From a virus: a stretch of DNA of 49,480 bases. How positions within the stretch are numbered: the first letter of the stretch is position 1; each line of letters opens with the position of its first letter. The notes under the pieces are model-generated. The model was given only the letters and a program-made list of their open reading frames with translations, was not told the DNA's origin and ran no database searches. The stretch is from positions 1 through 49,480 of the IMG/VR virus record IMGVR_UViG_3300021387_000130; one strand, given 5' to 3'. This document shows positions 6,270 to 49,480 of the stretch, in pieces. Made by a program: the position numbers and the translations under genes.

Positions 6270-6691
6270 TCAGTTCACGAAACCGTTACCGCCGCATCCA
6301 CAGCCACACTGATTCTGACCGCACGTGAAGATCGGAGTGCGACCATACACAGGTGTAGTCGGGACAGGGCAGGAGTTCAGGCGGTTATACAGCGCATCAA
6401 CTTCGTTGGCAAAGCCCTGAGAAATAAAGGCATTCTGTGCCGTCTGAGACTCACGAAGAGCCGCCATATTGAGCTGATTCTGGAGTCCGACATTTTCTCT
6501 CTGAGCCGCCGCAAGCTGACCTTTAACACCGTCAAGCTCAAGAGCGCACAGCTTGTCGAGGATTGCCTGAGTGCCACGGTTCTGAGCATCGATGATGTCT
6601 CTCGTGTTCTGCATGGACTGAGTTCTGTCCGCGCAGTTCTCCGTGGCTATTGTGTACTTCAGATCAGCCGTGCCGAGTCTGTTTTCACAGC
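6270..6691 (-). CDS. Exon 2 of the intron-split Gly-rich membrane-protein gene
   Basis: The frame is open 26 codons upstream of the track's Met (..CENRLGTADLKYTIATENCADRTQS-MQNT..) with no start codon or RBS of its own. The boundary is good to about 3 nt. Confidence 0.6.
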
Positions 6692-26754: not shown

Positions 26755-27345
26755 TTAGTTCTCTCCTTTCCTTCCGTAAATTGACTCATAGTGTTTCTGT
26801 GCAACAATAGCCGCTCTACTAGGCGTCCTGCCACCGCCTGAGCTACCCTCAGGAGGCGTATTCGTGTCTGCGCCCTTCACACCTTCAGTCACAATAAAGT
26901 CTTTCCATTCTTCTTTTGCTTCTTTTTCCAGAGCATCGGCATTTTTGATGTTTCCATCCTTATCAAGCTCGATTGTGTCAAACTTGCTGACCCGGATGAT
27001 TGTACCGATTCTCTTCTCTGACACTCCTGCCTTTTTCAGCAATTCGGCGTATGCGTCTTTCTTCTTGCGCATAAGCTCTCTCGCATCCACATCGGCCTTG
27101 TAGTCATCGTACTCTTTCCGCAAATCCTCATACTGTTTCTTATAAGGGTTTTCGCCATTCTGTTCTGCCGCTTTTTTCAGGTCATCCAGTTCCTTCTGGA
27201 CAGCAGGCAGAGCATCATGTGCCTCTTTGTATTTATCTCGCTCTTCCTTCAGCGCATTTACAGTATCGGTATGTGCTTCGATGATCTCATCAATCTTTTC
27301 CGCTTCAACCCCCAGAGCGGATAGAAATTTTCTTGTCAGTGCGAT
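26755..27345 (-). CDS. Scaffolding protein with no canonical start codon (candidate ATC 27345 or CTG 27339)
   Basis: The coiled-coil frame ..LTRKFLSALGVEAEKIDEIIEAHTDTVNALKEERDKY.. is open from 27348. There is no ATG, GTG or TTG before the TTG at 27123. The N-terminus looks like a typical scaffold start (M-x-RKFL..LG). Confidence 0.6.
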   Translation of the reverse strand: MALTRKFLSALGVEAEKIDEIIEAHTDTVNALKEERDKYKEAHDALPAVQKELDDLKKAAEQNGENPYKKQYEDLRKEYDDYKADVDARELMRKKKDAYAELLKKAGVSEKRIGTIIRVSKFDTIELDKDGNIKNADALEKEAKEEWKDFIVTEGVKGADTNTPPEGSSGGGRTPSRAAIVAQKHYESIYGRKGEN

Positions 27346-27875
27346 AAGTCATCACTCCCTTCTTCATATCGCCATACATAACCACCTGCTGTTTTACTCC
27401 ATCCGGTCAAACAATTATTGATTGCCGTTCGTGAAATTCCAGTCAGGTTACTTGCATATACAATACTTTTATACTCAGCAATTTTTTTGCCATTTACTTT
27501 ATATTGGCTAATATGCTTTCCTTTGCTGTATTCAACATTGTATTGCCGAGAACACCATTCAAGATTTTCCACATGATTATTTAAAGAATTTTCGTCCTTA
27601 TGATTTACTTCCGGATAATCATTTAGATTTTGTATAAAAGCTTTTGCAACGAGTCGATGTACAGATTCATGATGAATATTTCCCTCATTATCTGTAAGGA
27701 TCACAAATTCATATTGTGGCTGTCCTTTATATCCTCTTTTGCCTTTTTTAAGCTTTTTCCCTCTCCTATGCTGTTCCCATGCGCCATGTACGGTTTTTGG
27801 AAGTGAAAATACTTCGCCTTCGTCACTCACAAGATACCGCCCTTCGTATCCCGGAATTTCCTTCCAGAGTGCCAT
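27336..27875 (-). CDS. HNH homing endonuclease (NUMOD4 + HNH + C-terminal HTH)
   Basis: WKEIPGYEGRYLVSDEGEVFSL is a NUMOD4 motif. VNHKDENSLNNHVENLEWC is the HNH motif. The C-terminus has SIVYASNLTGISRTAINNCL. Confidence 0.85.
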   Translation of the reverse strand: MALWKEIPGYEGRYLVSDEGEVFSLPKTVHGAWEQHRRGKKLKKGKRGYKGQPQYEFVILTDNEGNIHHESVHRLVAKAFIQNLNDYPEVNHKDENSLNNHVENLEWCSRQYNVEYSKGKHISQYKVNGKKIAEYKSIVYASNLTGISRTAINNCLTGWSKTAGGYVWRYEEGSDDLSH

Positions 27876-29507: not shown

Positions 29508-30840
29508 TTACATCACCATACCTTCCCGCCTCATCAGCAACAAGCTCCTTCATGACTTCTTCCGTCTTATCTCCATCGCCAAGCAGTTCAAGGATTTTTT
29601 GCGTAATATAGTCAGTGGAAAGATACTGCGAAGACTGTAACAGCAGTTCTATGCTTTCCTGAGCATTAACGATAACAGAGCGTGTATAACTGGGCTCATC
29701 ATCAATCCCTGCAAGCTCAAGTATCCCGGAAATAAAGTCGGTCACGCAATACTCAAACATATCAGTCTTATTGTTCAGTGGTTCATACGCCGCCTTGATC
29801 TGTGTGGCAGTTACTGCGCCCCCGGCAATCTCTTTCGTGTCAAGAGCCATAAAATCGTCATAGAGGTCTGAACGCAGTCTGTCAAGCAATGCCTCCCTGC
29901 TTGCATAGGGCACATCCAAAGTGTGGCTTTCTGCCCTTGCTCCGTCATCATCAACGACAGCCGCCTTGACGGTTTTCATGCGCTGAACAAATTTGACTAG
30001 GTCTATGTCATCCATGCCGCCTGCATTCTGGATTGTCCAGTAAATCTGCGAAGCATCATCAAGGTCATTGGCAAAGCCACTCTTTATTAGGTCATAAGCG
30101 TCAATCGCTTCACGGATGCCAACAAGCTCGCTCTGCTTCTGCTGATTTGCCCAGAGCGGGATGATCGGGAAGCTCGGATAGTTTTCACCATCATAGATTT
30201 CCACACCATCTGAAAGCGTAAAACGGATTTTCAGTTTGTATGGACGTTTAGGCCGTATTTCAACTTCTTGACCGCTTCTCCAGATGTAATTTGTGTATCC
30301 GTCAATCTCGTACAAAGTAGCCCTGAGCGGCTTAACCGGGTCAATCTGCCAGAACCTGACTCCTGCTTTTAATGCGCCATCTTCTTCGTCCCACAGCGGA
30401 GCAAACTCTTTCAGCCGGAATGTTTCCAGATGGTCGTAATTCCAGAAACCGAAGGAAACTTTATCCACAAGCGCATAATGTGCAAGCTGTTGGACTTTCG
30501 TGTCAAAGTCCTTGCCCAGTTTTTCAGGCGTGCTCTTCTCGTTCCAACTTACACCATTGCCAAGCAGGTATTGCACCTGCTGAGTGACGAACCTGTTGAA
30601 AAAGCTCGAAGTAATTTTATAATTTGCGCTGTAATTATCCGGTACAGACTCTCCTGAGATGGTATAGAGCAACTTCCGGTATTCACTGATTGTGACATTC
30701 TGCTTGCAGTCATATGCTTCTGCAGTGATTGCCATCTCGTATTCGTCAGATGCCTTGTGAGTAGAAATAAAGCTTCGAACAAACTCCGATCTGAGCTTCT
30801 CGTCCTCACCGACTGCCAATAAGTCTTGATAAGTAATCAA
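29443..30840 (-). CDS. Portal protein (SPP1 gp6-like)
   Basis: 465 aa, immediately after terL, with an acidic C-terminal tail. Confidence 0.75.
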   Translation of the reverse strand: MITYQDLLAVGEDEKLRSEFVRSFISTHKASDEYEMAITAEAYDCKQNVTISEYRKLLYTISGESVPDNYSANYKITSSFFNRFVTQQVQYLLGNGVSWNEKSTPEKLGKDFDTKVQQLAHYALVDKVSFGFWNYDHLETFRLKEFAPLWDEEDGALKAGVRFWQIDPVKPLRATLYEIDGYTNYIWRSGQEVEIRPKRPYKLKIRFTLSDGVEIYDGENYPSFPIIPLWANQQKQSELVGIREAIDAYDLIKSGFANDLDDASQIYWTIQNAGGMDDIDLVKFVQRMKTVKAAVVDDDGARAESHTLDVPYASREALLDRLRSDLYDDFMALDTKEIAGGAVTATQIKAAYEPLNNKTDMFEYCVTDFISGILELAGIDDEPSYTRSVIVNAQESIELLLQSSQYLSTDYITQKILELLGDGDKTEEVMKELVADEAGRYGDVNAGSGEEGNGQEAEGDGASSF

Positions 30841-32134
30841 TGTTTTCTATACCATCCTTTCTTATCGCTTTTTTAATTACGTGTTTTGTCTTTACAAAAT
30901 ATCTCATGGCATCCATAAGATGATCATTTTCTTTTACAGGTCGATCATCCAAAGTGTCTTTATCCCAGACATAACCTGCCGCTTCTTCCTGCCAGTTTTT
31001 GCAATTCATGCAGATTTTAATATAGCTGTTATCCAATGCGTTAGCCGTCTCTCTAATGCCATCTAGCACAGCATTATCAGCTTTGATTACCTTGTATCTA
31101 TGATTTCTTTTTCGTAGCAGGGCGATAAACGAAGCGGCAGACGGGTCAATAATAGTTTCGATTTTTTGATCTGGCGCAATGTCCATCAGCCATGCATCCA
31201 AATCCTGTGCATATTGTTCGTCAGTCTTTTGGATTCCTTCGTTGCGCCCGCTGTAATAATACTCACGAACAGCATACCATGTTCTGCCTATTTTCGCAAA
31301 CAAAAGGGCGGCGAAAGCGTTCATGGTTCCATAATCCACGCTCAGACAATACGCTTCCGGTTCTCCGTCAGGATACGGACATATTGCCTTCTCATACATA
31401 GGGAAGATCAAACCCTCTGCAATACACCTTTCGCCGTCAATATCCCGGCGATACCACACAGAGCCTACGATGTATTGACTTTTGATTTCTTCAAGTCTCT
31501 GCGGCGTTATAGCGAGGTTGTCAGCAATGGTAAAATGTTGATATTGATAACCGCCTTTGTATTTATCGACATAAGCATCTATATAATTCTTATAAATGCT
31601 GTGACCGGGATTGCATGGATTCAAATCCCACAGGATCAGCGGCTTCTCTGCGGCAACCTGACGACCAAAAGCGACTTTTATAAAAGAGGTTCGAGAATCT
31701 TCACAGTCGTAATGCTCGTTAATTTCCGTAGCTATCCACATTCCGTACGAGTTACCAAGGATCCGTTTATAACTGTCTGACTTTGCCGCACCTGTGAAAA
31801 TAACGATCTTCTCACCTGTCTGCGTGTAAATATATAATGCTTCGTTATCCTTGAATTTCCCCCATTTACAACGACCACGGAAAAGGTTTTCAAGCCCAAA
31901 GCCGTTGCATACTCCAATGTTCAGTTTGGCATTACCGATTGTCGAACCGGATGCTAAATGTATTTTGTCTGGGCAGGTTTCCAGATACATTGCCGCAATA
32001 ATGCAGTTATCTATTGTTTTGCCTGAACGAATAGCACCCTCCGCAACATTCATTTTGTTGCGAAGGGCGTTCTTAATATAGGTTTTATGTTTTTGAGAAA
32101 AAGGTTTCCATTCAATCGTTTGTTTTTTATTCAT
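30806..32134 (-). CDS. terL: Terminase large subunit
   Basis: Walker A GAIRSGKT, a PBSX/Terminase_3-like organisation and a C-terminal nuclease region (DHLMDAMRY). Confidence 0.85.
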   Translation of the reverse strand: MNKKQTIEWKPFSQKHKTYIKNALRNKMNVAEGAIRSGKTIDNCIIAAMYLETCPDKIHLASGSTIGNAKLNIGVCNGFGLENLFRGRCKWGKFKDNEALYIYTQTGEKIVIFTGAAKSDSYKRILGNSYGMWIATEINEHYDCEDSRTSFIKVAFGRQVAAEKPLILWDLNPCNPGHSIYKNYIDAYVDKYKGGYQYQHFTIADNLAITPQRLEEIKSQYIVGSVWYRRDIDGERCIAEGLIFPMYEKAICPYPDGEPEAYCLSVDYGTMNAFAALLFAKIGRTWYAVREYYYSGRNEGIQKTDEQYAQDLDAWLMDIAPDQKIETIIDPSAASFIALLRKRNHRYKVIKADNAVLDGIRETANALDNSYIKICMNCKNWQEEAAGYVWDKDTLDDRPVKENDHLMDAMRYFVKTKHVIKKAIRKDGIENIDYLSRLIGSR

Positions 32135-32468
32135 CTTTCAACATCTCCGCAAGACCCGAAAGATCTTCAACCTCAGTAATGGTCTGTTCAACTTTATCAG
32201 TTTGTCCAAGCCAATTCTTGCCAAGAAAAATAGCCATTGCTACATTATGCTCTGCCATCTTAAACTGCCATCTGCGCAGGCTGATTTTACCCGCCGAAGA
32301 ATGTTTTTTAAATGCCTCCGCAAAACTCATTTTCAGCTCTCGTTTACACCATCTTTCAATGGTGTCTTCGGAGCAACTAAAAAATGATGCGATTTCAGAC
32401 AATGTGCATTGCAAACCACATAATTTTTTGAAATTATCAAAATCAATTTCAATTCTTGGTCTCGCCAT
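32127..32468 (-). CDS. terS: Terminase small subunit
   Basis: 113 aa with an N-terminal HTH (CTLSEIASFFSCSEDTIERW). It lies directly upstream of terL. Confidence 0.6.
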   Translation of the reverse strand: MARPRIEIDFDNFKKLCGLQCTLSEIASFFSCSEDTIERWCKRELKMSFAEAFKKHSSAGKISLRRWQFKMAEHNVAMAIFLGKNWLGQTDKVEQTITEVEDLSGLAEMLKDE

Positions 32469-32616
32469 ATTTATACCGCCTATATTCTGAAAGCTCCTTT
32501 TTCAAGCGCAAAAGATATTTATTATAATCACGTTTTAAAGTTTTACTTTCTGTCCGTTTTAATGCATCTTCGACTCGATTAATCTCAGTTATTTGATTTA
32601 ATTCGGCTTTATCCAT
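32449..32616 (-). CDS. Small coiled-coil protein (55 aa), below the ORF-track cutoff
   Basis: GGAG lies 8 nt upstream of the ATG. Translation: MDKAELNQITEINRVEDALKRTESKTLKRDYNKYLLRLKKELSEYRRYKYGETKN. Confidence 0.4.
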   Translation of the reverse strand: MDKAELNQITEINRVEDALKRTESKTLKRDYNKYLLRLKKELSEYRRYKYGETKN

Positions 32617-32621
32617 AGATT

Positions 32622-33941
32622 TTACTCCAATACATCAGCAAATCCATCTTTTGTTTTTCCTATAATTCCAGAATATCCCGGCATAAATGTCTTGCTTTCG
32701 TCATAAATATATACGATATCGCCGTTTTCATCAAGACCATTTGGCTTCATAACTCCACCAAACATAACAAATGGATTTTGTCCTGCCCTTGGATTATTCC
32801 AAAGATAATGCAGATAATCTTTCATGGTTGAATTATAAAATCTTGCTCTTTTCTCACTTGAATTTGTATTAAACCCTTCAGCCTTATTGAACATGATTTT
32901 ATCAAGATAATGCATATCACTCTCGATTTCGCTCCAATGCACAACGCCGTTTCTCCGGCATAATTGCAATGCATAAGAAAAATTCCCTCTGGAGTAATTA
33001 TAATCAGGATTTAAACCACAGCAACAGCCATTTGCGCAGAGCTCTTTAAAATGCGCATCAGAGACGTAAAATCTCATACCGAACTTATCACAAAGCTCTT
33101 TCATTTCATACATGTATCGCTCTTTTATTTTGCGATTAAGCCGGAGATACCCACTGCCTCTTGAATGCTTCTTATAAAAGTCCACAATGTCAAAGCCACA
33201 GCATTCACTTAAAACGTTATAATGTTCTCTTGCGTTATTTATCGATCGGGCTTCAAGACAAAAGAACTCCGTTGTTACTGCATCCGCACCTGCATCATGA
33301 GCGGCAACAATCAGATCCTTATAATCTTTCGAGGAAACGCCAATAATAAACGGTCTGAGCCGCAATGTTGCGCCGCCCTTGTTTAATGTTGTGTATTCAT
33401 GTATGGCATTAATCCGCTCCTGCGGAGAAGGAACTCCGACTTCGATCTTCTTCGCTTTTTCTGCATCAAGAGTAATGATACTGAATTTTACATTCCAATT
33501 ATCCTGTCCTCTGAACAGCTCTCGATACCGTTCATCATGAACCCACCAAGTACTTTTTGTGGAAAAACAAATTGGATAATTAATTTCCTTGAAAAACTTC
33601 AACAATTCAAGTGTAACGCCGTACTTTCGTTCAAATTCATCAAACTGATCCGAAAGCCCGCCCCATTGAAAAACTTTTCTTGCACGAACATAATCACCAA
33701 ACTGACTGCTGTCAGGATCAGTAAAAATGGCTTTTACTTTTTCCGGGTTTACACTCTTTACAACCTTTGCAAGATAATCATCTTTTGAACTGCCAATCCC
33801 ACGCTGATACTGTGAGAAGCAATATACACAGCCGAAAGAGCAGTTGCTGTATGTATCAAAGGTCATTGGCATTGTACAGTCTGCGATTTCTCCAGACCAA
33901 CGTGGACTGCCATAATTTTGCTTTAGTTTTTTATCGCTCAT
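32622..33941 (-). CDS. Radical SAM enzyme, spore-photoproduct-lyase/DNA-photolyase-like (COG1533-like)
   Basis: Carries the CxxxCxxC motif NCSFGCVYCF near the N-terminus and a second Cys cluster CANGCCCG. The protein is 439 aa. Confidence 0.65.
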   Translation of the reverse strand: MSDKKLKQNYGSPRWSGEIADCTMPMTFDTYSNCSFGCVYCFSQYQRGIGSSKDDYLAKVVKSVNPEKVKAIFTDPDSSQFGDYVRARKVFQWGGLSDQFDEFERKYGVTLELLKFFKEINYPICFSTKSTWWVHDERYRELFRGQDNWNVKFSIITLDAEKAKKIEVGVPSPQERINAIHEYTTLNKGGATLRLRPFIIGVSSKDYKDLIVAAHDAGADAVTTEFFCLEARSINNAREHYNVLSECCGFDIVDFYKKHSRGSGYLRLNRKIKERYMYEMKELCDKFGMRFYVSDAHFKELCANGCCCGLNPDYNYSRGNFSYALQLCRRNGVVHWSEIESDMHYLDKIMFNKAEGFNTNSSEKRARFYNSTMKDYLHYLWNNPRAGQNPFVMFGGVMKPNGLDENGDIVYIYDESKTFMPGYSGIIGKTKDGFADVLE

Positions 33942-34711
33942 ATTATTTGAATAACTCCACTGTAATCAGGCTTTACTTTCACATAACGGCTGTATTCTGC
34001 GCAAAGCCTATCGAGATCGTTTCTTATTGCATCTGTTTGATACGTTTCAAACAATCCGCCTTTGTAATTTCTGTTTGGCTTTTTGCTTGTTGCGATATCA
34101 TTTTTTCTTATCGTCAATCCTCCAGAAGATATGATTCTCAGCTGAATCTCATAATCTTCAACAGTACGATACGTTTCGTTATAATATGTTTTCTTGTCAA
34201 TTATATGACCGACTAATCCTCCCTGAAATAGCTTGTTTACGCTAAACTCTCCATCCACAGAAAGCCTAGTCTTTGCAAACATTGCATTTCCAGTGGGAGA
34301 ACAGCCCCATATAACGCTTCCAATCTGTTCCGTTTCGGAGAAAGACTTTATTACATCCTCTTCAAAAACCTTCTTGTCGTATATCTTTCTTGATGTTGCC
34401 TTTGTCTGACCTTTTTCCGCAAACAGCTTCATTTTTGTAAAGCTCAGCACATCATCATCAAGCATACACACCCAGTCTCCGACAGAGTACCCATCGTACC
34501 GAAGAACGTTATTCCTGTTTACGGAGCAACCCTTTCCTTCAACAAGAACAAAGTTTATCTCAGGATGAAGCACTTTATATGCTTCGCAATCGTTTCTGTC
34601 TTGCAGAAAAACAGTAATGTCGCTCCTTTCAATTCCAAGCTCAAGAAGCGTTCTTATCGTGACGCATTCCGGGCGATGATAACTTATGATCGCATAATTT
34701 ATTTTCTTCAT
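33938..34711 (-). CDS. GT-A-fold glycosyltransferase-like protein
   Basis: N-terminal YAIISYHRPE is a Rossmann-like strand. A DxD-type motif occurs in CMLDDDVLSF. Confidence 0.45.
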   Translation of the reverse strand: MKKINYAIISYHRPECVTIRTLLELGIERSDITVFLQDRNDCEAYKVLHPEINFVLVEGKGCSVNRNNVLRYDGYSVGDWVCMLDDDVLSFTKMKLFAEKGQTKATSRKIYDKKVFEEDVIKSFSETEQIGSVIWGCSPTGNAMFAKTRLSVDGEFSVNKLFQGGLVGHIIDKKTYYNETYRTVEDYEIQLRIISSGGLTIRKNDIATSKKPNRNYKGGLFETYQTDAIRNDLDRLCAEYSRYVKVKPDYSGVIQII

Positions 34712-35436
34712 GATTCTTCCGCCGCTTTAATGTCGCTTGCGATATAGATCACTTTCAGCTTCTCTTCCTGCGGAACTCCGAGCAGGTCTTTCACGATCTT
34801 TTCTTCTTCGTCATTCCGATAGATGATGATGACGCGCCTTGTCACCAATTCAGCGGCATGCTTCGCATACGCCGCCAAATCCTCTTTTGCGGCTTCTTTA
34901 GGAATATACGGAGGAGTTTCCGCCTGACCGCCAAAAACGCCTTGTTGCCCATTATACGGACTTACAGGCACATATTCGCCGCTGTCTGCCTGCTCAACAG
35001 GACGAACTGCTTCCGCCTGCGGAGTGTACTGAGGGATTTCAGGCGAATCATCGATCTGAAGCTCAAGAATTTCCGCTTCATTAAAACCAAAATCAGTCAT
35101 ATCTAAGCCCGGAAGATCACCAATTTCTTCTACAAGAAGCTCAATATCCCAATCACTTTCATTGGTTTTATTATCTGCAATTCTAAATGCTTTTACCTGT
35201 TCCTCCGTAAGATCATCAGCCATAACCACAGGCACAACAGTCATTCCCAAGAGCTTTGCCGCCGCAAGTCTGCCATGCCCGACAATAATCTCCATATTCT
35301 TGTCCAGTACAAGCGGCTGACGAAAACCAAATTCCTTAATGCTGTTCGCAATCGCCTTTACCTGATCTTCAGGATGCTTTTTCGCATTCTTTTTATAAGC
35401 CTTGATTTCACTTATTTTTACCTGTTTTACGTCCAT
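34708..35436 (-). CDS. ParB/Srx N-terminal-domain protein with an uncharacterised C-terminal half
   Basis: KISEIKAYKKNAKKHPEDQV...GFRQPLVL...IVGHGRLAAAKLLG is a ParB-like nuclease/NTPase domain. Confidence 0.65.
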   Translation of the reverse strand: MDVKQVKISEIKAYKKNAKKHPEDQVKAIANSIKEFGFRQPLVLDKNMEIIVGHGRLAAAKLLGMTVVPVVMADDLTEEQVKAFRIADNKTNESDWDIELLVEEIGDLPGLDMTDFGFNEAEILELQIDDSPEIPQYTPQAEAVRPVEQADSGEYVPVSPYNGQQGVFGGQAETPPYIPKEAAKEDLAAYAKHAAELVTRRVIIIYRNDEEEKIVKDLLGVPQEEKLKVIYIASDIKAAEES

Positions 35437-35488
35437 TTAATACTCCTTAAAAATAGTTTATTTATAGAAACAAATATTTTACGTGTAA

Positions 35489-35517
35489 ATAATACCATGT
35501 ATAAATAATTTACGCAA
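35489..35517 (-). promoter_or_regulatory. Candidate promoter of a different class
   Basis: Minus strand reads TTGCGT-17 nt-TATTAT, between terminator 35549-35571 and the ParB-like gene. Confidence 0.4.
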
Positions 35518-35548: not shown

Positions 35549-35571
35549 GAAAAAACCGCCCCTGAGGGCGG
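35549..35571 (-). terminator. Rho-independent terminator (minus strand)
   Basis: Stem CCGCCC/GGGCGG with a 4-nt loop is followed by UUUUUU. Confidence 0.7.
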
Positions 35572-36660: not shown

Positions 36661-37026
36661 TCAGCTCTCCTTTCTTTCCATCTGTTTAACCTGATCCATC
36701 GTAAAGAAGAATGCTACCTTCTTGTAAAAGCCCTTTGCTTTCATTTCAGCATCTTCTCCGGTTCCTTCTTTATCTGCATCAGCCTCTTCCTTCTTCTTAT
36801 CTTTTTTAGGCATCCAGATCTGGAACCTTGCCACCGCATGTTCGCCTTTTCTGACGATATATCCTTCACGCTTCCATGCGTCGAAGGTTTTGATTTCTTC
36901 CGGCATCATCATCTCACGTTCACCGTCCTCATCATTGAACGTGATTGATGTTCCTTCAATGCCTTTGATCACTCCCTGCTCCATCAGGAAGACTCTGTTT
37001 CTAAAAATAATTTCTGCGTTTGTCAT
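36661..37026 (-). CDS. ArdC-N-terminal-like (DUF1738-like) ssDNA-binding-domain protein
   Basis: KTFDAWKREGYIVRKGEHAVARFQIW and FYKKVAFFFTMDQV resemble the ArdC N-domain motifs. The start at MTNAEII follows the CCCAAGGAGGTCAAG leader. Confidence 0.45.
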   Translation of the reverse strand: MTNAEIIFRNRVFLMEQGVIKGIEGTSITFNDEDGEREMMMPEEIKTFDAWKREGYIVRKGEHAVARFQIWMPKKDKKKEEADADKEGTGEDAEMKAKGFYKKVAFFFTMDQVKQMERKES

Positions 37027-37065
37027 GATCTTGACCTCCTTGGGTTCCTTATTTGTTCTGCCATT

Positions 37066-37094
37066 ACTATAGCTCATTTGATTATATATGTCAA
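37066..37094 (-). promoter_or_regulatory. Sigma-A-type promoter (family member)
   Basis: Minus strand reads TTTTTATTGACA-17 nt-TATAGT. Confidence 0.65.
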
Positions 37095-37194: not shown

Positions 37195-37611
37195 TCATGT
37201 TCCGGTACTACCGAAGCCATTGTTTCCACGTTCAGTCTCATCCATTGTATAAACGACATGGGGAATTGGGGTAATAATCGGAAGAATAACAAGCTGTGAT
37301 ATCTTGTCACCCTTCTCAACCATCATATCACATTTTCCGTGATTATACAACTTAATTATAATCGAACCTGTGTAGCCGGAATCAATCACTCCTTCGCTCA
37401 GCAAGCTGTACTTTACATTTAAGCCGCTCTTGCTTTTGAGCATACCAACATATCCTTCTGGTATCTCTATATGCACTCCAGTGTCGATTACAGCCGCTTC
37501 ACCTGCCTTTATAATAACTTCTATAGTGCTTCTCAAATCAAGCCCTGCATCGTCCTTGTGGGCTCTCTCAGGCATATATGCGCCAACGTCAAGCACAATA
37601 TTGATATTCAT
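37195..37611 (-). CDS. dut: dUTP diphosphatase
   Basis: Trimeric dUTPase motifs are present: DAGLDLRS, IDSGYTGSI, GDKISQLV and C-terminal RGNNGFGSTG. Confidence 0.9.
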   Translation of the reverse strand: MNINIVLDVGAYMPERAHKDDAGLDLRSTIEVIIKAGEAAVIDTGVHIEIPEGYVGMLKSKSGLNVKYSLLSEGVIDSGYTGSIIIKLYNHGKCDMMVEKGDKISQLVILPIITPIPHVVYTMDETERGNNGFGSTGT

Positions 37612-38150
37612 TGCCGCCCTCCGTTCACATCCAGATTTATCAACGAACCAGTTGCGCCAATCTGCTTTTGGTATTTGCCGGAATACGGATTTTCCACACG
37701 CTCTCCTGTCTTTGCAAACACAAGCTGAGCTACCCTTGTTCCTGCAGTCAGTTCTATGGCATATCGCCCTGCATTGTAAAGCTCCAAGGTGATCTGCCCT
37801 TCAAAGCCCGGATCGACCCATCCCGCATTCTGCACAAAAAGCCCCAACCTACCGATAGATGATCTGCCCTCTACAAATGCTGTCAGGTTACTTGGCAGTT
37901 TAATATACTCCATCGTTGTTGCCAGAACAAAATCCCCGGGAGCAATTGTGAATTTGTCCGCAACGATATCCGTATACTTAGCTCCTTCTGAAAATCTGAT
38001 GACTGGTTCGAAAGAATGTGAAAGCATACAGAATGTGTTGCCGATTCTGACATCCACGCTTGCAGGCTCTATTTGACTCTCTTCCATCGGCGAAATACAA
38101 AGCTCGCCTGTTTCAATCAACTTCTTGATTTCTCCATCTGATAAAATCAT
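37608..38150 (-). CDS. dcd: dCTP deaminase
   Basis: MILSDGEIKKLI..., VDVRIGN, GRSSIGRLGLFVQNAGWVDPGFEGQITLELYN. Confidence 0.9.
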   Translation of the reverse strand: MILSDGEIKKLIETGELCISPMEESQIEPASVDVRIGNTFCMLSHSFEPVIRFSEGAKYTDIVADKFTIAPGDFVLATTMEYIKLPSNLTAFVEGRSSIGRLGLFVQNAGWVDPGFEGQITLELYNAGRYAIELTAGTRVAQLVFAKTGERVENPYSGKYQKQIGATGSLINLDVNGGRQ

Positions 38151-40559: not shown

Positions 40560-41267
40560 TTACCCCCATTGTTCAGCCATAGCCTTTGCTATGCCGGAGA
40601 AAGTTTTGCTCCTAGCTTTTGCACGTTCAGCTTGACCGCCTTTGATGTTTCTCATTCCTTCGCACCAACCAATCTTTTTCCCCTTACCTTTCTCACCTTG
40701 CAAAATGTACATTGGCGGTGGAGGCGGTAAGAAGCTACTTCTTTCAAGCTGTGGAAGTCCTTTGAGCCATAGACACGTTCTCTTTTCGTAGTAATTTTCA
40801 GCATCATCCTCACTTTCTGCGAAAAAGTAAGGGTGAATAATCTGGTCTGGCTTTCTGTATGAAGAGTTCATAAAGCCGACCGGATTTTCTACTGCGATAC
40901 GGTCACAGTCAGCTAGGGCAAATCGCATGAAGAAAACAGCGGCTCTTGCTCTTTCTTCCCACCTGGCTATGACCTTCTCTGCCGTACAACACTTCAAAGA
41001 GTATTGCCTTGTGGCTACGTTACTTAAATAGGTGCAAGGCGGATGTGCAATTATTAAATCCCATCTGTCTGTCTGTCTGTCTGTCTTGCCATTCTGCAAT
41101 GTAAACTCACAATGTCCGTTTAACAATGGCAATACATCTCCCAATATATGCCACTCAGGATGTCCACCCGAGCATTCTTGAATATCACAGCTGTACGCTT
41201 CGTGTCCACGCTCTCTGAATGCCGTGCAGACCCTTTGCGATTCTTCGCAAGCAATTAAAACTCTCAT
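40560..41267 (-). CDS. Orphan DNA (cytosine-5) methyltransferase-like protein
   Basis: MRVLIACEESQRVCTAFRERGHEAYSCD...WDLIIAHPPCTYLS...IAVENP resembles the short phage-type cytosine methyltransferase family (PC catalytic motif, ENP). Confidence 0.55.
   Translation of the reverse strand: MRVLIACEESQRVCTAFRERGHEAYSCDIQECSGGHPEWHILGDVLPLLNGHCEFTLQNGKTDRQTDRWDLIIAHPPCTYLSNVATRQYSLKCCTAEKVIARWEERARAAVFFMRFALADCDRIAVENPVGFMNSSYRKPDQIIHPYFFAESEDDAENYYEKRTCLWLKGLPQLERSSFLPPPPPMYILQGEKGKGKKIGWCEGMRNIKGGQAERAKARSKTFSGIAKAMAEQWG
41064..41086 (-). repeat. Tetranucleotide microsatellite (AGAC)5.75 on the coding strand, inside the methyltransferase-like gene
   Basis: The plus strand reads tctgtctgtctgtctgtctgtct. 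It encodes KTDRQTDR upstream of the HPPC motif. Confidence 0.95.
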
Positions 41268-42538: not shown

Positions 42539-42707
42539 TTTGTTTTACCCCTCCTCCTATCATCACATAATTCAGCGTTTTGCAACTATGGCATTTCATT
42601 TCGAAAGCAGGCATCGCCTGTTTTTCCGGCCACACGCCTATCATTTTCCCTAGCTTGTGACCGCAGTTCCCACATCTCACCCATTCATTATCTCTTCTTG
42701 CTGTCAT
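42531..42707 (-). CDS. Small zinc-ribbon protein (58 aa), below the ORF-track cutoff
   Basis: AAGGAGG lies 8 nt upstream of the ATG. Translation: MTARRDNEWVRCGNCGHKLGKMIGVWPEKQAMPAFEMKCHSCKTLNYVMIGGGVKQNG. Confidence 0.55.
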   Translation of the reverse strand: MTARRDNEWVRCGNCGHKLGKMIGVWPEKQAMPAFEMKCHSCKTLNYVMIGGGVKQNG

Positions 42708-43527
42708 TTTCCAACGCCTCCTTTACATAATCCCTACCATTGTCTACAACCTTCGCAGTTGTAAGATAGACTGCGTTTCTTCCAAATAGCTGTTCGGCTG
42801 TTTTTCTTAGCTGTTCCTCTGTTGAGCCATAAGCAATCGCTCTGCCATAACCGCTTCTGTACTTGCCCCCCGGCACCCTGCTGTACCAATCAAAACCGAT
42901 TACTCGGAAAAAGGCTGTATGTGTCAGAGGAAAGCTAATCCGCTTTAAATCTATTGGCTGTGTTGCGTCCTTGACCTTGACCACCATCATGTCACAGCCT
43001 TTTTCGTCAGAATAAGTCTGGCAAGTGTATAGGTTAAATCTGTATCCCTGCTGTTCCATCTCAATGATGACTCCAAGGATACTCTGCCCTGCTTTGATAA
43101 TGTCACTGCTTTCAATCCTGCAGGCAACCGTCATGTCGCAATAGACATCGATCACCTTGGATTTGATTGGCCTCATGCTCATGTCGAGCATTGAGTTTGG
43201 TACATTTTTCAGTGCAAGCGGAACTATCGGAGCGAACCCCTGCACATTATTCTGAAATGTGAATCTCTTCCGCTCCCCGGTTCTGGACATCTTAAAGATG
43301 CCTCTCATGCTGTCAACTGTGGGCTGATAGCCTCCTGCCATCAGCTTCAGAGCTTCGTCAAAGGACTTGACTCCCTCAAATTTTCCAAGCGGCTGTTTTG
43401 TCTTGTCTTCAAATGCGGAACTGGTGATCTTTCTGGTTCTGCTTTTCTCTACCACTTCTATTGCGCTGTCGAAGCGCTCGATGTGGAAAGCTCTATCCAA
43501 TGCTTTTTTGTTTAAAATTGTACTCAT
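42688..43527 (-). CDS. Unknown protein paired with the AAA+ ATPase
   Basis: The start at MSTILNKK follows GGAGGGA. It has an alpha/beta-like core (VIDVYCDMTVACRIES) without a DxSxS MIDAS motif. Confidence 0.45.
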   Translation of the reverse strand: MSTILNKKALDRAFHIERFDSAIEVVEKSRTRKITSSAFEDKTKQPLGKFEGVKSFDEALKLMAGGYQPTVDSMRGIFKMSRTGERKRFTFQNNVQGFAPIVPLALKNVPNSMLDMSMRPIKSKVIDVYCDMTVACRIESSDIIKAGQSILGVIIEMEQQGYRFNLYTCQTYSDEKGCDMMVVKVKDATQPIDLKRISFPLTHTAFFRVIGFDWYSRVPGGKYRSGYGRAIAYGSTEEQLRKTAEQLFGRNAVYLTTAKVVDNGRDYVKEALENDSKKR

Positions 43528-43576
43528 GGTATCCCTCCATAGGCAAGTTGTAGGCAAGTTATTTATTCCTGTCACT

Positions 43577-43605
43577 ATTGTATCGCAACCGCCATTATAT
43601 GTCAA
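43577..43605 (-). promoter_or_regulatory. Sigma-A-type promoter (family member)
   Basis: Minus strand reads AAAATATATTGACA-17 nt-TACAAT. Confidence 0.65.
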
Positions 43606-43633
43606 TATATTTTAGAAACATAATCAGCAGGAT

Positions 43634-44890
43634 TTACATCCTGCTAATGATGTTTCTCAGGGCTCTTTTATATTTACTGTCAAGAATAATACCGTTGCAG
43701 ATGATGTTCAGGTCATCCTTTTCCAAGCCCTTGACCAAGCAAGTTTCCAGAGCCTCTTCAATATCCAAAATCTGAAGCATCTTGGCAAGCCTTCCGATTG
43801 CCCGGTAGCTTACGATAACCTGCTGTCCTGCCTTGTGAGCGGCGTTGCGGAACTCTCTACAGAACTGTGCAAGCTCGTGATCACCTGCAATCGAGTTTTC
43901 GATGGCTTCGGAATAGCCAATCTTCACGATTGCGAAGCGATCAAGGGAAGCGGCGTCAAGCTGATTGCGCCCTACATATTCGTAAGACGCTCCCTGTCCC
44001 ACTGTGTTACCTGCGGCGATTACCCGAAAATCGGAATGCGCTTCTCTGTATCCGATCGGTGCAGGGAAATCAAAGTACCTGTTTGCGATTGCCGCATTCA
44101 GGATCACTAGAACCTCGGGAATAGAAGCATCCATCTCGTCAAGCATGAATACCCCACCCTGCGTGAATGCTTTGTAAAACTGGGTTTCCTGATAGTTCCC
44201 CATGGCATCTGTGAAGCCTGTGAGCTTGTATTCCTGCGTGACGGCATTCGTGAAATAAAACTTCAGTCCAAGCGCTTCCGCAACCTGCTTACACAGGACA
44301 TTCTTACCGGAACCTGCGGGGCCAGTCAGGAAAACTGGTTCATTATTGCTGACAAACTTCAGCACGGTTTCAAACTTCTCATGCTGAATGCCCTGCATTG
44401 GAACCTTTTTACCATCGACCACCGTGATGATCTTCCGTTCGATGGTTCCATATTCCTCTTTGATGAATTCCCGAACCTTGTCCTCGACCTGCCCCATGAT
44501 CTCGGATTCGATTTTTTCAGCCTGCGTTTTGGAAATCAGCTGAATGACTGCCTGTTCGAGTATTCCCATAGAATACTGAACCTGCTTTTCTGTAACTTGC
44601 GACTGAGGCTCCGGCTCTGCCGCCTGCTGAGGCTCTGCCGCCCCTTTTACTTCACACATACACTCGAAAAAAGAGCATTTATCGTACGCAGTGTTTGCGG
44701 CGTAATCCCGGATATAATCTTTTAATGTTTTAACATCGCCCCGCAAAGCTTCAAGAGCTTCTAAAGCCAAATTAATATTACTTGTCGGGTTCTCTTCACT
44801 CCCAGATCTGAGAGCATATCCGGTCTGCATGTTATAGAACCGGATAATCATTTTAGCCGCGGCCTTTTCGTTTTCACTATAATGTTTCAT
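43634..44890 (-). CDS. AAA+ ATPase (AAA_5; MoxR/CbbQ/CobS-like) with a 170-aa unknown N-terminal region
   Basis: Walker A FLTGPAGSGKN and Walker B VFMLDEMD. The start at MKHYSEN follows the CCCAAGGAGGTCAAAC leader. Confidence 0.7.
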   Translation of the reverse strand: MKHYSENEKAAAKMIIRFYNMQTGYALRSGSEENPTSNINLALEALEALRGDVKTLKDYIRDYAANTAYDKCSFFECMCEVKGAAEPQQAAEPEPQSQVTEKQVQYSMGILEQAVIQLISKTQAEKIESEIMGQVEDKVREFIKEEYGTIERKIITVVDGKKVPMQGIQHEKFETVLKFVSNNEPVFLTGPAGSGKNVLCKQVAEALGLKFYFTNAVTQEYKLTGFTDAMGNYQETQFYKAFTQGGVFMLDEMDASIPEVLVILNAAIANRYFDFPAPIGYREAHSDFRVIAAGNTVGQGASYEYVGRNQLDAASLDRFAIVKIGYSEAIENSIAGDHELAQFCREFRNAAHKAGQQVIVSYRAIGRLAKMLQILDIEEALETCLVKGLEKDDLNIICNGIILDSKYKRALRNIISRM

Positions 44891-44933
44891 GTTTGACCTC
44901 CTTGGGTTCAAGTTAATTTCTTCATCTGTAAAC

Positions 44934-44962
44934 AATATAGCGCTTACTAATAATTATGTCAA
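44934..44962 (-). promoter_or_regulatory. Sigma-A-type promoter (family member)
   Basis: Minus strand reads AAAAAATATATTGACA-17 nt-TATATT, with GCGC before the -10. Confidence 0.7.
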
Positions 44963-44971: not shown

Positions 44972-45373
44972 TCAAAATCTTTCATTCCAATATCTTACAG
45001 CTGTTTCTCTGGAGGGAAAGTCAGGCGTAATACAATATGAATTATAACAACTTCCCATGCAAAGCACCTTCCACTGCTTGCTGTGTCCTATAGTGCTTAT
45101 CTCGTATATTACAGCATTGCTCCCACAAAAAGGACACTTCTTAAGCCTGTCCAGTTCCTTTTTGACAGTTATATCCTCATCAATCTTGCTTTTCCGTGAG
45201 TTGGCATATCCAAAAGCAAGTATCCACAGGCAACACAAGATTGTCGCAAGTAATGCCGGGATGAAAAATGCATCAATCAAGCATCCTGATACTACCGCAA
45301 GAAAAACTGCGGCATAAGTTATTGCGATTAACACTTTGTCATGAGTCGTTTTTGTGTTCCATTTTGCCATCAT
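44972..45373 (-). CDS. Membrane-anchored Lar-family (restriction alleviation-like) zinc-ribbon protein
   Basis: Two N-terminal TM helices are followed by LKKCPFCGSNAV...CMGSCYNSYC...ETAVRYWNERF, a Lar-family pattern. The start at MMAKW follows CAGGAGGGG. Confidence 0.5.
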   Translation of the reverse strand: MMAKWNTKTTHDKVLIAITYAAVFLAVVSGCLIDAFFIPALLATILCCLWILAFGYANSRKSKIDEDITVKKELDRLKKCPFCGSNAVIYEISTIGHSKQWKVLCMGSCYNSYCITPDFPSRETAVRYWNERF

Positions 45374-45395
45374 TTCTTTCCCCTCCTGCCATAAA

Positions 45396-47681
45396 TCAAT
45401 CAATAAAGTCACTGAACTTATACTGTTTTGGCTCATTATGGGCAATAATTCGTATGTTTTTGTAGAAAATCCCAGAACTATTTCTGCCTTTTTCCGGTAA
45501 TTTCTTGCTGATTTCCGAGAAAAACTTCTTGGAGCTCATCTCATACTCGTTGTTTTCTTTCGCCCATCTAATATATGTCCTAAACAATTCTGTTGCAGGA
45601 ACTCTTTCGTCACAGTCATAATCAATCTCGATGCATTGCTCCAAGAACCCCGCAAGCAAATCCATTTCCTGCTTATATTCCTTAACTGCATCTGTGACGC
45701 ACTGCGGCTCTTCTATGCCGTATTTTCTCCATTTTATGCATCCCTCAACTGCCCACTTAAGTATCTGTGGGAATTCCTTTTTGAGTTTCTGTTTAAGATT
45801 TTTATCCACCTTTTCCTTCGGAATATTAACCTCAAACGGAATAAGCTTAATTCGCCTCCATATACCCAAATCAGTTCCTCTGATTACTGGTTTGTGGTTT
45901 GTGGCAATCCAGATTTTAAACTCGGGTGTGTACTCAAACTCATCACCATAGAGAAACCTACAAGTGACTTTTGAGCCACCTGTTAACTGTTTCAATAATC
46001 CCTCATTCAGTCTTACACCTTCTGTCGGTTCTTCACTGGTCACAAACCTTGCACCCTTCAGTCTGGCAACATCAGAATTTGCGCTGTCACTTCCCCACTT
46101 TTTCATCATGATCGTTTCCGGCTGAGTGTTTGCAGAATACCCTCCAAGTAAATCAGCCATTGTATCCAGAAAAGTTGATTTACCGTTGTTGCCTATACCA
46201 TAAAGAAAATAAGCGCACTGCTCAGCGGTACTGCCTGTCAGGGAATAGCCCACACAGCGCTGAATGTATTCCTGCAGTTTTGCATCGCCATTCGTCACAT
46301 CCTGCAGAAATGAAAGCCATAGCTCAGGTTGTTTTCCCGAAGTATCATAATCAGCATTGCACATCTTAGTCATCAGAAAATTGCTGTCGTGTGGGATTAA
46401 CTCACCGTTTCGCAGATTGACTATGCCGTTCTTGCAGTTTATATAATCCACATAAGAGTCAAGCTCATCCTGCATGATTGGTATTCCCGGAAGATGCTGA
46501 CACTCTTTGATCATCGCTTCCTTACCTTTGGAGCTCGCTGTCTTAATCGACCATTTTAAAAGGTCTACTTGAGTTTTTTCATCCTCTTCCATGATCGCTT
46601 CTTTTTTGATGTCATCACATATCATATCAGCAAGCTTTTTGACTTCGCCGGAGTTGTCAGCTTCCCAAACTTTACCATCCCAGAAAAACCATTTCTTGCG
46701 ATTGTAGGAATATCGAATGATCGTTCCGAACCTGTCCTGCAGTCTGTGAGCGTTTCCGGTATCGGTCATGTCATAGCGCTTCTTCTGTTCAACTCCTACC
46801 TTCCCATCACCGAAAAGAGCGAACGCCAATTCCTTATCATCGTCATAACGTTTCGGCTCGTATACATCAACACAATTAATGCAAGCTTTGCTTATGGTTA
46901 TCGCTCCATAAGTTGTTTCTCCTCTTTTCTGATCCCATTTCGGACGCATCAATCCGCTCGTTCGAAATATCCTGTCCATCTGCGCTTCATTGCGCTGTGT
47001 CCAAAAGGCAAGCTGATTACATAAAGCGAGATCGGCCTCAGACTGCGAAGAATATACGCCCTGCCAGTTTCCCTGATACAACATATTAAAAAGATACCCA
47101 CTTTTACAGGTTCTGGCTTTATCAATCACCTCCTGATCGTCCATATTGACAACTTCTACCCGCTGTCTGTTAACAACCTTCTGGCTATCTGAACTCAGAT
47201 ACTTTTCATGCAGTGGTTTAATACGTTCAGTGCATTCTTCAATAGTAAGATAGTTAGGATTGTACACATTGCCTGTGCAAATAAAGTACCTGCCGGAGCT
47301 GTACATCTCAACGTTTCCTCTGCGTCTTGCTCCCTTTGGAAGCTCTCCCCTGCAGATAATGTGGATGCCGTTGCCGCTCTTGGAATACTCTGCATAGCTC
47401 TGGAGTGTATCCACAAATTCATCGCAGAAATCAAGATCATCGGAGCAATGATCAAGATCAACTCCAAAGTATCCATTGGCAAACATGAAACCCACACCAT
47501 CAAAGTGATATTTATCGCAAGCCTCCACAGCCTGTTCAAAGCTTGCCCAAGTGCTTGAGTCATTTGACTTTGCACTTCGCCCGGTATATGGGTTTTTGGG
47601 TATTTTATCCGCTCCGCTCCAACATACCCACTGAGGAACATCTTGTAATTCCTTAGGGATATTTTCAATTCTTGTGACCAT
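45396..47681 (-). CDS. Bifunctional primase-polymerase / D5-type SF3 helicase
   Basis: The N-terminal prim-pol domain has GVGFMFANGYFGVDLDHC. The C-terminal P4/D5 helicase has Walker A YGIGNNGKST. The start is at MVTRIEN. Confidence 0.85.
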   Translation of the reverse strand: MVTRIENIPKELQDVPQWVCWSGADKIPKNPYTGRSAKSNDSSTWASFEQAVEACDKYHFDGVGFMFANGYFGVDLDHCSDDLDFCDEFVDTLQSYAEYSKSGNGIHIICRGELPKGARRRGNVEMYSSGRYFICTGNVYNPNYLTIEECTERIKPLHEKYLSSDSQKVVNRQRVEVVNMDDQEVIDKARTCKSGYLFNMLYQGNWQGVYSSQSEADLALCNQLAFWTQRNEAQMDRIFRTSGLMRPKWDQKRGETTYGAITISKACINCVDVYEPKRYDDDKELAFALFGDGKVGVEQKKRYDMTDTGNAHRLQDRFGTIIRYSYNRKKWFFWDGKVWEADNSGEVKKLADMICDDIKKEAIMEEDEKTQVDLLKWSIKTASSKGKEAMIKECQHLPGIPIMQDELDSYVDYINCKNGIVNLRNGELIPHDSNFLMTKMCNADYDTSGKQPELWLSFLQDVTNGDAKLQEYIQRCVGYSLTGSTAEQCAYFLYGIGNNGKSTFLDTMADLLGGYSANTQPETIMMKKWGSDSANSDVARLKGARFVTSEEPTEGVRLNEGLLKQLTGGSKVTCRFLYGDEFEYTPEFKIWIATNHKPVIRGTDLGIWRRIKLIPFEVNIPKEKVDKNLKQKLKKEFPQILKWAVEGCIKWRKYGIEEPQCVTDAVKEYKQEMDLLAGFLEQCIEIDYDCDERVPATELFRTYIRWAKENNEYEMSSKKFFSEISKKLPEKGRNSSGIFYKNIRIIAHNEPKQYKFSDFID

Positions 47682-49455: not shown

Positions 49456-49480
49456 GTTTTTACGATACAATATCTCGCAC
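49456..49480. repeat. Terminal direct repeat (copy of 1-25)
   Basis: Identical 25-mer at both ends of the window. Confidence 0.9.

Follow-up and report, generated by a model that had tools for sequence, protein, structure and literature searches.

The DNA examined here (the window) is the whole of IMG/VR virus record IMGVR_UViG_3300021387_000130, 49,480 nucleotides long, and our subject is a group of three adjacent genes at positions 32622-35436 that encode a ParB-like protein, a glycosyltransferase (GT) and a radical S-adenosylmethionine (SAM) enzyme, called rSAM below. An identical 25-nt prefix and suffix (positions 1-25 and 49456-49480) forms the suffix-prefix overlap that is the signature of a circular assembly, and the window holds a phage genome in full, circular and ~49.5 kb long, with ~49,455 bp of unique sequence and almost all genes on the minus strand. 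A first-pass annotation, made from the letters alone, had proposed that the three genes are translationally coupled and form a DNA-modification module. The coupling was borne out: the open reading frames (ORFs) are exact, and a 4-nt ATGA start/stop overlap is found at each of the ParB/GT and GT/rSAM junctions. On the evidence given below, the trio is very probably a DNA-hypermodification cassette. The features of the locus are as follows.

34708-35436, minus strand: ParB-like protein, ORF of 242 aa
33938-34711, minus strand: GT, ORF of 257 aa
32622-33941, minus strand: rSAM, ORF of 439 aa
35443-35448, minus strand: ribosome-binding site AAGGAG of the ParB gene, read from the sequence, 7 nt before the ATG
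35556-35571, minus strand: intrinsic terminator ending the upstream (early/middle) unit, with a stem of 6 G-C pairs, a 4-nt loop and a TTTTTT tail
35476-35505, minus strand: weak candidate for a sigma-70-like promoter that would drive the cassette and late operon (TTTATA-18-TAAAAT, 9/12 consensus matches)
32449-32616, minus strand: conserved 55-aa K/R/E-rich ORF between rSAM and terS, which may belong to either module
32127-32468, minus strand: terminase small subunit (terS), with PHROG matches
30806-32134, minus strand: terminase large subunit (terL), with PHROG matches

Downstream of rSAM lie the 55-aa ORF, terS, terL and the portal gene, the terminase subunits being matched by phrog_309 and phrog_10250 / phrog_2. 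Since terS and terL follow directly, the cassette opens the packaging/late operon. On the other side, where a dedicated terminator/promoter pair had been annotated, the terminator is present and the promoter proved to be just a weak match; promoter-like matches in that region occur at ~2 times their chance number, so support for the promoter is weak.

The three proteins

The ParB-like protein exceeded the Pfam ParB_N cutoff (36.1 bits; cutoff 26.3), with the annotated GHGR motif at residues 53-56, and matched phrog_620 at 4e-51. It consists of an N-terminal ParB/CTPase-fold domain (1-95), a helical pair (98-127), a disordered linker (131-182) and a small conserved C-terminal module. In the AlphaFold2 (AF2) model the N-domain reached a pLDDT of ~90 and the linker stayed below 50, and in an alignment of 47 full-length homologues the C-terminal module and the helical pair 'DMTDFGFNEAEILEL' were conserved and the linker was variable. 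Neither this alignment nor the model contained a helix-turn-helix (HTH) between the N-domain and the C-terminal domain (CTD). The best Foldseek matches were M. xanthus ParB, Noc, and the ParB proteins of B. subtilis and C. crescentus, and the nearest relatives of the N-domain were fusions to N6/N4 DNA methyltransferases or DUF4417. The protein belongs to the ParB subtype found alongside DNA-modifying enzymes. It lacks the marks of a partition ParB (ParABS), having no HTH parS-binding domain and no apparent ParA partner, as no ParA-type ATPase turned up among the window ORFs scanned.

The GT-A-like protein with a DDD motif, as it had been annotated, passed the cutoff of PF20691, the TET-associated glycosyltransferase family (TAGT), with 37.3 bits against 27.5, over model positions 4-204 of 205, and was matched by phrog_842 ('beta-glucosyl-HMC-alpha-glucosyltransferase') at 9.4e-9. 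The DDD motif (D85-D86-D87), which is of the GT-A DxD type, was at least 90% conserved in 31 distinct homologues, and an N-terminal I-x-S-Y-x-R motif was likewise conserved; fused homologues scored up to 1.4e-25 against PF20691. The family was defined in clusters of C5-methyltransferase (C5-MT) and TET genes that glucosylate 5-hydroxymethylcytosine (5hmC) (PMC8256090). The GT is a predicted DNA 5-hydroxymethyl-pyrimidine glycosyltransferase of the TAGT family with a GT-A fold. A TET_JBP partner for it was found neither in the complete genome of the window nor in the flanks, of 10 kb or less, that were available for the related loci described below, and a search among TAGT homologues for TET-linked cousins yielded only 15 close matches and was uninformative.

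The motif C34-SFG-C38-VY-C41 (CxxxCxxC) of the rSAM was 93-97% conserved in 58 diverse homologues. The window protein itself remained below the cutoff of Pfam Radical_SAM PF04055 (21.1 vs 29.5 bits), a family matched at E<=1e-3 by 23 of 32 long rSAM homologues, and NCBIfam gave only partial matches to the COG1533-type (SplB-like) models PA0069 (56 bits vs a cutoff of 360) and Rv2578c (38.9 vs 430). With an AF2 model of good quality (pLDDT 87.8, pTM 0.89), all 23 Foldseek matches in the PDB at E<=1e-3 were radical SAM enzymes; the top five were entries of spore photoproduct lyase (SPL; E 1.6e-8 to 3e-7, TM 0.41-0.54), which were ~1000-fold better in E than the next radical SAM enzyme. The annotated N-terminal cluster motif and likeness to SPL are thus confirmed, the COG1533-type matches being partial. 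Two family profiles gave no sequence match in the PDB at E<=1 or E<=10.

Outside the SAM cluster, the conserved cysteines are only C22, C307 and C308. A second Fe-S cluster had been annotated at CANGCCCG; as a 4-Cys auxiliary motif it was ruled out, since C302 and C306 are variable. In the SPL of G. thermodenitrificans, C140 is the catalytic hydrogen-atom donor and Tyr98 the relay for SAM regeneration. The rSAM family has no conserved Cys between residues 42 and 227, the region of SPL C140, and by motif register, without structural superposition, F42 falls at the position of SPL Y98 and Y40 at that of Y96. C22 stands 12 residues before CxxxCxxC, in the same register as SPL S76 and as C111 of gp53 from Pseudomonas phage M6; S76 is the rescuing-cysteine position in the functional C140A/S76C variant of PDB 4RH0, according to the title of that entry. 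From motif spacing, the correspondence of C22, S76 and C111 may be regarded as a lead only.

SplB (PDB 4FHC, 4FHG, 4K9R, 4RH0) is the best structural match of the rSAM (E 1.6e-8, TM 0.44/0.54), is a DNA-acting radical SAM enzyme, and, by motif register, has in common with the rSAM the Tyr that stands two positions ahead of the final cluster Cys (Y40 = Y96). The two proteins differ in that identity is 15% and a sequence-profile match is lacking, that ~100 extra C-terminal residues are present in the rSAM, and that its invariant Cys-Cys pair is absent from the description of SPL, in addition to the apparent differences at C140 and Y98. Furthermore, the rSAM is always found in ParB/TAGT/kinase/AADT cassettes upstream of terminase genes (AADT, amino-acid:DNA transferase), which is a context of modification and not of repair. 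A plain SPL appears very unlikely on these grounds, namely the failure of two profiles to find a PDB sequence match, the pattern of catalytic residues as far as motif register shows it, and the genomic context; the profile and fold searches did not reduce the rSAM to a photoproduct lyase, in agreement with the first-pass annotation.

The rSAM family comprises 2,245 matches in a 90%-clustered database, or 1,299, 575 and 173 clusters at 50% identity for E<=1e-3, 1e-10 and 1e-30, respectively, and had no name in every source examined. Its relatives were absent from ~50,000 GenBank phage records, in which the DNA search gave only short ParB matches.

Two further observations concern this family. 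Inteins (Intein_splicing, LAGLIDADG, Hint) interrupt the rSAM in 6 of the 32 long homologues (P0124, P0139, P0140, P0153, P0240 and others); inteins usually lodge in highly conserved enzymes of DNA metabolism. In addition, a second, shorter SPL-like rSAM paralogue (278-290 aa) joins the cassette in 12 loci (L001, at 6549-7385; L009, L011-L013, L021/22, L046, L049, L051, L053). It shares the cysteine pattern (upstream Cys, CxxxCxxC and C-terminal Cys-Cys), and matches phrog_13321 and, weakly, phrog_9252 'DNA repair photolyase'.

An invariant ParB-rSAM core with an exchangeable third gene

For comparison we used 64 related loci (54 from IMG/VR, 3 contigs of metagenome-assembled genomes and 7 assemblies). 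ORFs were called and clustered, and the clusters were identified with Pfam and re-counted by tblastn and hidden Markov models (HMMs); co-occurrence was counted on the 55 loci with at least 2.5 kb upstream, with 31 rSAM lineages at 90% identity. ParB was found beside the rSAM in 53/55 loci by HMM and in the other 2/55 by tblastn. The terminase genes, which hold the same position in nearly all related loci, follow the pair directly. Of the trio whose co-occurrence was to be checked, the ParB-rSAM part is conserved, and TAGT (33/55 loci) is one of several interchangeable partners. The invariant core is thus a ParB-like protein with an SPL-like rSAM, and the third gene is an exchangeable tailoring enzyme. 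The variable slot was found to contain the following.

TAGT: the commonest occupant, in 33/55 loci
Homologue of the 5-hydroxymethyl-deoxyuridine (5-hmdU) DNA kinase (PF18748), with or without an AADT (PF18724)
TAGT-like protein with a SPASM-type rSAM
HAD/kinase-like protein with a cytidylyltransferase and TAGT
GNAT
Nothing (ParB-rSAM only)

The 5-hmdU DNA kinase (HMUDK) occurs in at least 12/55 loci and the AADT in at least 11/55. The validated 5-hmdU kinase M6 gp54 matched slot kinase genes at up to 8.6e-12, and the AADT match to PF18724 (35.6 bits) was above the cutoff. ParB-rSAM-only modules were observed in several lineages, among them the divergent L060 and L072. One lineage has lost just the TAGT through a clean deletion of ~705 nt, the flanks on either side being ~96% identical, and no tailoring gene was found elsewhere in the 12-21 kb examined. 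Kinase-type and TAGT-type rSAMs are up to 82% identical, and rSAM identity is independent of module type. The rSAM does not track its partner, a pattern that fits an enzyme that acts on a common unmodified substrate and not on divergent products.

The association of ParB and rSAM also extends to remote relatives. At 32% rSAM identity, the overlapping upstream gene codes for a ParB built in the same way (HMM E 1.6e-24), and at 29% ParB-like motifs were recognised in the upstream gene by eye only, without an HMM match; in the reciprocal search, distant full-length ParB homologues (39-43% identity) were again located in rSAM cassettes. This link was observed as co-occurrence and co-evolution, and a requirement of the rSAM for ParB is predicted. 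TAGT is fused to the rSAM in 12/32 long homologues (e.g. P0012, P0013, P0121), and further fusions join the rSAM to GNAT, a P-loop nucleotide kinase and an FkbM methyltransferase. Together with the conserved co-occurrence, the TAGT-rSAM fusions support the DNA-modification reading made from the window alone. In at least 10 loci (for example L011 11323-12126, L067 10084-10890 and L070 5694-6485) the gene next after the rSAM encodes a truncated MetK-like SAM synthetase (PF00438 N-domain), which suggests a stoichiometric use of SAM that is consumed rather than recycled.

Hosts, where assignable, were Lachnospiraceae and Eubacteriales; one bin came from goat ileum, a clostridial ChW domain is present in the lysin of one relative, and L004 is a prophage on a 292-kb contig. 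These assignments and the lysin domains suggest that the phages infect obligate anaerobes of the gut.

Two of the variants deserve separate mention. In L021/L022, L045, L046, L055 and L067, a HAD/phosphoheptose-isomerase-like and kinase-like protein (~357 aa) and a cytidylyltransferase precede the TAGT, and this sub-variant suggests a dedicated CDP-/NDP-activated sugar donor for DNA glycosylation. L072, a 30-kb Logan contig (SRR12489247), carries a very divergent ParB-rSAM pair (32% rSAM identity); the virus-like contig also has genes for an MCM helicase and for a protein that matches MtrA, a hint that the pair is present in archaeal viruses as well.

Proposed reaction and alternative explanations

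To our knowledge, 5-hydroxymethyl pyrimidines arise in DNA by two routes, through a ThyA-like hydroxymethylase that acts on nucleotides before replication or through O2-dependent TET/JBP enzymes that act on DNA. No TET_JBP, ThyA or ThyX was found in the complete window genome, in which essentially all non-structural ORFs of at least 100 aa were scanned with Pfam. Because the window is a complete circular genome, the absence of TET/JBP, ThyA-like and 5-hmdU kinase genes stands genome-wide. The ThyA-like M6 gp58 had no tblastn match in the 65 loci (the window and its relatives). When 49 distinct large upstream ORFs from ~447 kb were surveyed with Pfam, no 5-hydroxymethyl source was present among the best 25 of 36 families, the other 11 all having E >2e-6, and a second, fully listed census of kinase/AADT-type loci contained no TET/JBP or ThyA-like gene. 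A 291-aa protein of L017 with a ThyX-like motif by eye was ruled out, as it had no Pfam match and noise only against the PDB. The absence of TET/JBP, 5-hmdU kinase and deazaguanine genes that had been annotated for the window holds for the genome, and the suggestion that any chemistry would lie outside the described pathways agrees with the literature searches, which returned no description of it.

The 5-hmdU kinase, AADT and TAGT families have been characterised on 5-hydroxymethyl or phosphomethyl pyrimidines in DNA (PMC8989533, PMC8256090). Because the slot partners act on 5-hydroxymethyl-pyrimidines and no conventional source of the group was found, we propose that the core supplies 5-hydroxymethyluracil (5-hmU), and that the trio would form a late-expressed, post-replicative DNA pyrimidine-hypermodification cassette. 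Fe(II)/2-oxoglutarate (2OG) dioxygenases need O2, and such enzymes cannot work in these hosts because the hosts are obligate anaerobes. Once phage DNA has been replicated, the ParB-like protein would load the rSAM onto it or activate the enzyme there, in the way ParB serves the 5mYOX thymine dioxygenases considered below. The rSAM would then cleave SAM reductively, and the 5'-deoxyadenosyl radical would take a hydrogen from the C5-methyl of a flipped-out thymine. SPL chemistry passes through a thymine C5-methyl allylic radical, and the radical formed here would be the same one. It would not be quenched; one more electron would be removed, possibly via the invariant Cys307-Cys308 or Cys22, and water captured, so that 5-hmU would arise in DNA without O2. 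TAGT would move a sugar from a nucleotide-sugar onto the hydroxyl to give a base-J-like glycosyl-5-hmU. Sister phages would instead pass the same 5-hmU to the 5-hmdU DNA kinase for phosphorylation and to the AADT for aminoacylation. The modified DNA would be packaged by the terminase encoded directly downstream and would resist host nucleases. The rSAM would then be the first O2-independent DNA 5-methylpyrimidine (thymine) hydroxylase, a ParB-activated, SAM-consuming anaerobic analogue of TET/JBP that acts on double-stranded DNA with water as oxygen source, and it would found a large (>2000 sequences), modular family of anaerobe phages giving glycosyl-, phospho- and aminoacyl-thymidines. We assign this reading a probability of roughly 0.45. 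For the full mechanism in the window phage, in which a ParB-assisted, O2-independent rSAM makes 5-hmU in DNA and TAGT glycosylates it, the chances appear evenly balanced.

The logic of such a cassette is not wholly new, since post-replicative pyrimidine hypermodification with a ParB accessory is already known. In phage cassettes of the ParB-dependent clade C1 5mYOX (TET/JBP-like) enzymes, an HTH-less ParB activates a thymine dioxygenase, and these cassettes, published in 2026, are linked to kinases, AADTs and GTs and act post-replicatively (PMC13229309, PNAS 2026). Both systems place a ParB with nucleotide-binding domain, helix-helix element, linker and CTD but no HTH beside a base-functionalising enzyme, have M. 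xanthus (MxParB) and C. crescentus (CcParB) proteins as nearest ParB structures, and are tied to 5-hmdU kinase, AADT and glycosyltransferase genes. The difference is that no Fe(II)/2OG dioxygenase was found here, its position being held by the non-homologous, O2-sensitive rSAM; in addition, the hosts are anaerobes, a SAM synthetase is often added, and the dependence of the rSAM on ParB is predicted. Full-text literature searches, which did not cover Iyer et al. 2013, gave no paper that links an rSAM to 5mYOX-type cassettes or to DNA-base hydroxylation. The predicted product has its analogue in eukaryotes. Kinetoplastid base J is made by the JBP1/2 hydroxylase and the JGT glucosyltransferase, JBP being an O2-dependent dioxygenase with its own DNA-binding domain. 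Oxidation followed by glycosylation would give glycosylated 5-hmU on DNA in both cases, whereas the enzymes are unrelated in sequence.

Several points weigh against a thymine hydroxylase. The proposed product is deduced purely from neighbouring genes, we know of no radical SAM enzyme that hydroxylates a DNA base, and the rSAM family has no obviously complete auxiliary Fe-S motif to take the second electron. The absence of a 5-hydroxymethyl source across a whole genome rests on one complete genome of the TAGT type, the kinase/AADT-type loci were scanned only within ~10 kb upstream, and very divergent dioxygenases could escape the Pfam TET_JBP model. A methyltransferase-like gene of PHROG 757, described below, may leave a 5-methylcytosine (5mC) substrate possible for the window phage. 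Finally, the only characterised DNA-modifying rSAM, M6 gp53, is a distant homologue that works as a late tailoring isomerase (PMC8989533).

It is possible, though unlikely, that the cassette is the same and its radical chemistry another, the ParB-rSAM pair adding a different group to a DNA base on which GT, kinase and AADT then act. Thiolation or methylthiolation via the conserved cysteines or a putative 3-Cys cluster, a C-C adduct and a 5'-deoxyadenosyl adduct are examples. C22, C307 and C308 are more reminiscent of sulfur-insertion or auxiliary-cluster rSAMs than of a simple hydroxylase, the ParB-rSAM-only modules show that the product of the pair is self-sufficient, and the literature searches gave no precedent for rSAM hydroxylation of DNA. 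Against this, the slot kinases are homologous to the validated, 5-hmdU-specific DNA kinase M6 gp54, and the AADT and TAGT families are likewise defined on 5-hydroxymethyl/phosphomethyl pyrimidines. All three partner classes must be served by one common product, for which a primary alcohol is the simplest candidate.

We consider it slightly less probable again that the rSAM is a downstream tailoring or accessory enzyme, with the handle made by an unrecognised phage enzyme or by the host. Its model is M6 gp53, an SPL-like radical SAM N-alpha-glycinyl-thymidine isomerase that acts on phage DNA within a thymidine-hypermodification cluster (PMC8989533); it is homologous to the rSAM at E 1.4e-12 and has an upstream Cys 12-14 residues before CxxxCxxC. 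Relatives of the cassette also carry extra rSAMs (the small paralogue and the SPASM type) that look like tailoring enzymes, and many window ORFs are without assigned function. However, gp53 matched the rSAM family HMM over the core only and at 35.5 bits, compared with ~150-650 within the family. Orthology was ruled out at this score, and a tblastn search of GenBank phages with the window rSAM missed M6 even at E<=10. In M6, gp53 needs a clade-2 AADT, a pyridoxal phosphate (PLP) decarboxylase, a 5-hmdU kinase and a ThyA-like dUMP hydroxymethylase as partners. The window genome has none of these genes, and in its relatives a kinase and an AADT were seen, with no PLP enzyme, ThyA-like gene or TET/JBP. 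No ParB partner is described for gp53, which performs a late tailoring step, whereas the rSAM belongs to an invariant core. The rSAM is also the most conserved gene of the cassette, and its identity of up to 82% across glycosyl and kinase/aminoacyl modules would be unlikely if it recognised such different adducts; moreover, it persists with ParB alone in modules that lack every tailoring gene.

An anaerobic copy of the C5-MT/TET/GT clusters, which in phages make glucosyl-5hmC (PMC8256090; bioRxiv 10.1101/2023.12.21.572611), is improbable. In such a cytosine route, a methyltransferase would make 5mC, the rSAM would convert it to 5hmC and TAGT would glycosylate it. The candidate is a 235-aa methyltransferase-like protein (40560-41267, minus strand), which had been annotated as cytosine-methyltransferase-like. 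It matched PHROG 757 ('DNA methyltransferase') at 1.2e-55 and has PPCT and ENPVG motifs, but a glycine-rich SAM motif I is missing and neither Pfam nor the PDB gave a match, and as a conserved partner it was ruled out, being present only in the window genome among the 65 loci. The C5-MT/TET/GT clusters, in which TAGT was defined, resemble the present cassette in a PF20691 GT with a DxD-type motif near ParB and terminase genes, and among the related loci a bona fide C5 DNA methylase is encoded upstream in one lineage (L056/L062). They differ in that no TET/JBP and no conserved C5-methyltransferase are found here, and in that the GT is often fused to the rSAM, an architecture unmentioned in those papers. 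The 5-hmdU kinase and AADT, employed by one third of the modules, belong to the thymidine pathway, and the ParB-dependent 5mYOX subclass acts on T (PMC13229309). A pathway to glycosylated 5-hydroxycytosine (PMC13326640) was ruled out as a relevant model, as it uses ThyA homologues and no rSAM.

We give almost no credence to three unrelated genes (an SPL-type repair enzyme, a partition or packaging ParB and a GT for host surface polymers), for although SPL is the best structural match of the rSAM, 'DNA repair photolyase' phrog_9252 weakly matches the small paralogue and ParB genes are common beside terminases, this is opposed by the TAGT-rSAM fusions, the strict ParB-rSAM coupling with ATGA overlaps, the DNA-specific kinase/AADT partners and adjacent SAM synthetase, the lack of sequence-level SPL membership (no PDB match at E<=10, NCBIfam scores far below cutoffs), the absence of a conserved Cys in the region where SPL C140 lies, F42 in place of Y98 by motif register, and the irrelevance of UV photoproducts in gut and rumen.

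Neither the ThyA-like nor the TET/JBP route explains post-replicative 5-hydroxymethyl hypermodification in phages of strict anaerobes, and it is here that a ParB-activated rSAM thymine hydroxylase would matter. If true, the radical SAM superfamily would gain a reaction new to it, the C-H hydroxylation of a DNA base, and another aerobic/anaerobic enzyme pair would be added to cases such as HemF/HemN. The role of ParB as an activator would reach beyond dioxygenases to an unrelated enzyme, suggesting a general loader for DNA modification. Many gut and rumen phage genomes may then carry glycosylated or aminoacylated thymidines, with consequences for sensitivity to restriction and CRISPR, for bias in virome sequencing and for phage engineering. 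Such an enzyme would also offer a TET-like reagent that works without O2 or 2-oxoglutarate, of use in epigenetic sequencing chemistry.

Neighbouring genes

The annotated dUTPase and dCTP deaminase were both recovered with Pfam.

37195-37611, minus strand: dUTPase (Pfam dUTPase 3e-31)
37608-38150, minus strand: dCTP deaminase (Pfam DCD 4.5e-46)

These enzymes supply dUMP/dTTP and exclude deoxyuridine, and they are no source of a hydroxymethyl group. A nucleoside 2-deoxyribosyltransferase-like protein (14633-15160, minus strand; PF15891, 61 bits; its PHROG has no assigned function) has its gene flanked by a tail-fibre-repeat gene and the SPOR/lysin genes, an odd place for a nucleotide-metabolism fold. 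In 18 related loci the 55-aa ORF downstream of the rSAM has a 56-aa homologue in the same place (blastp 7e-7; HMM 3.7e-9).

Two candidate anti-restriction genes were observed, one for an ArdC-N-like protein (36661-37077, minus strand) that scored just below the Pfam cutoff, and one for a Lar-like restriction-alleviation protein (44972-45445, minus strand). A DUF7192 protein and an AAA_5 (MoxR-like) ATPase form a pair at 42688-44935 (minus strand) that recurs in the early regions of related phages (also L015 and L067). Three homing-endonuclease-like genes, all on the minus strand, are of the GIY-YIG type (48679-49380), of the HNH type with NUMOD4/NUMOD1 within the structural module (27336-27875), and a weak NUMOD1 match (6819-7457).

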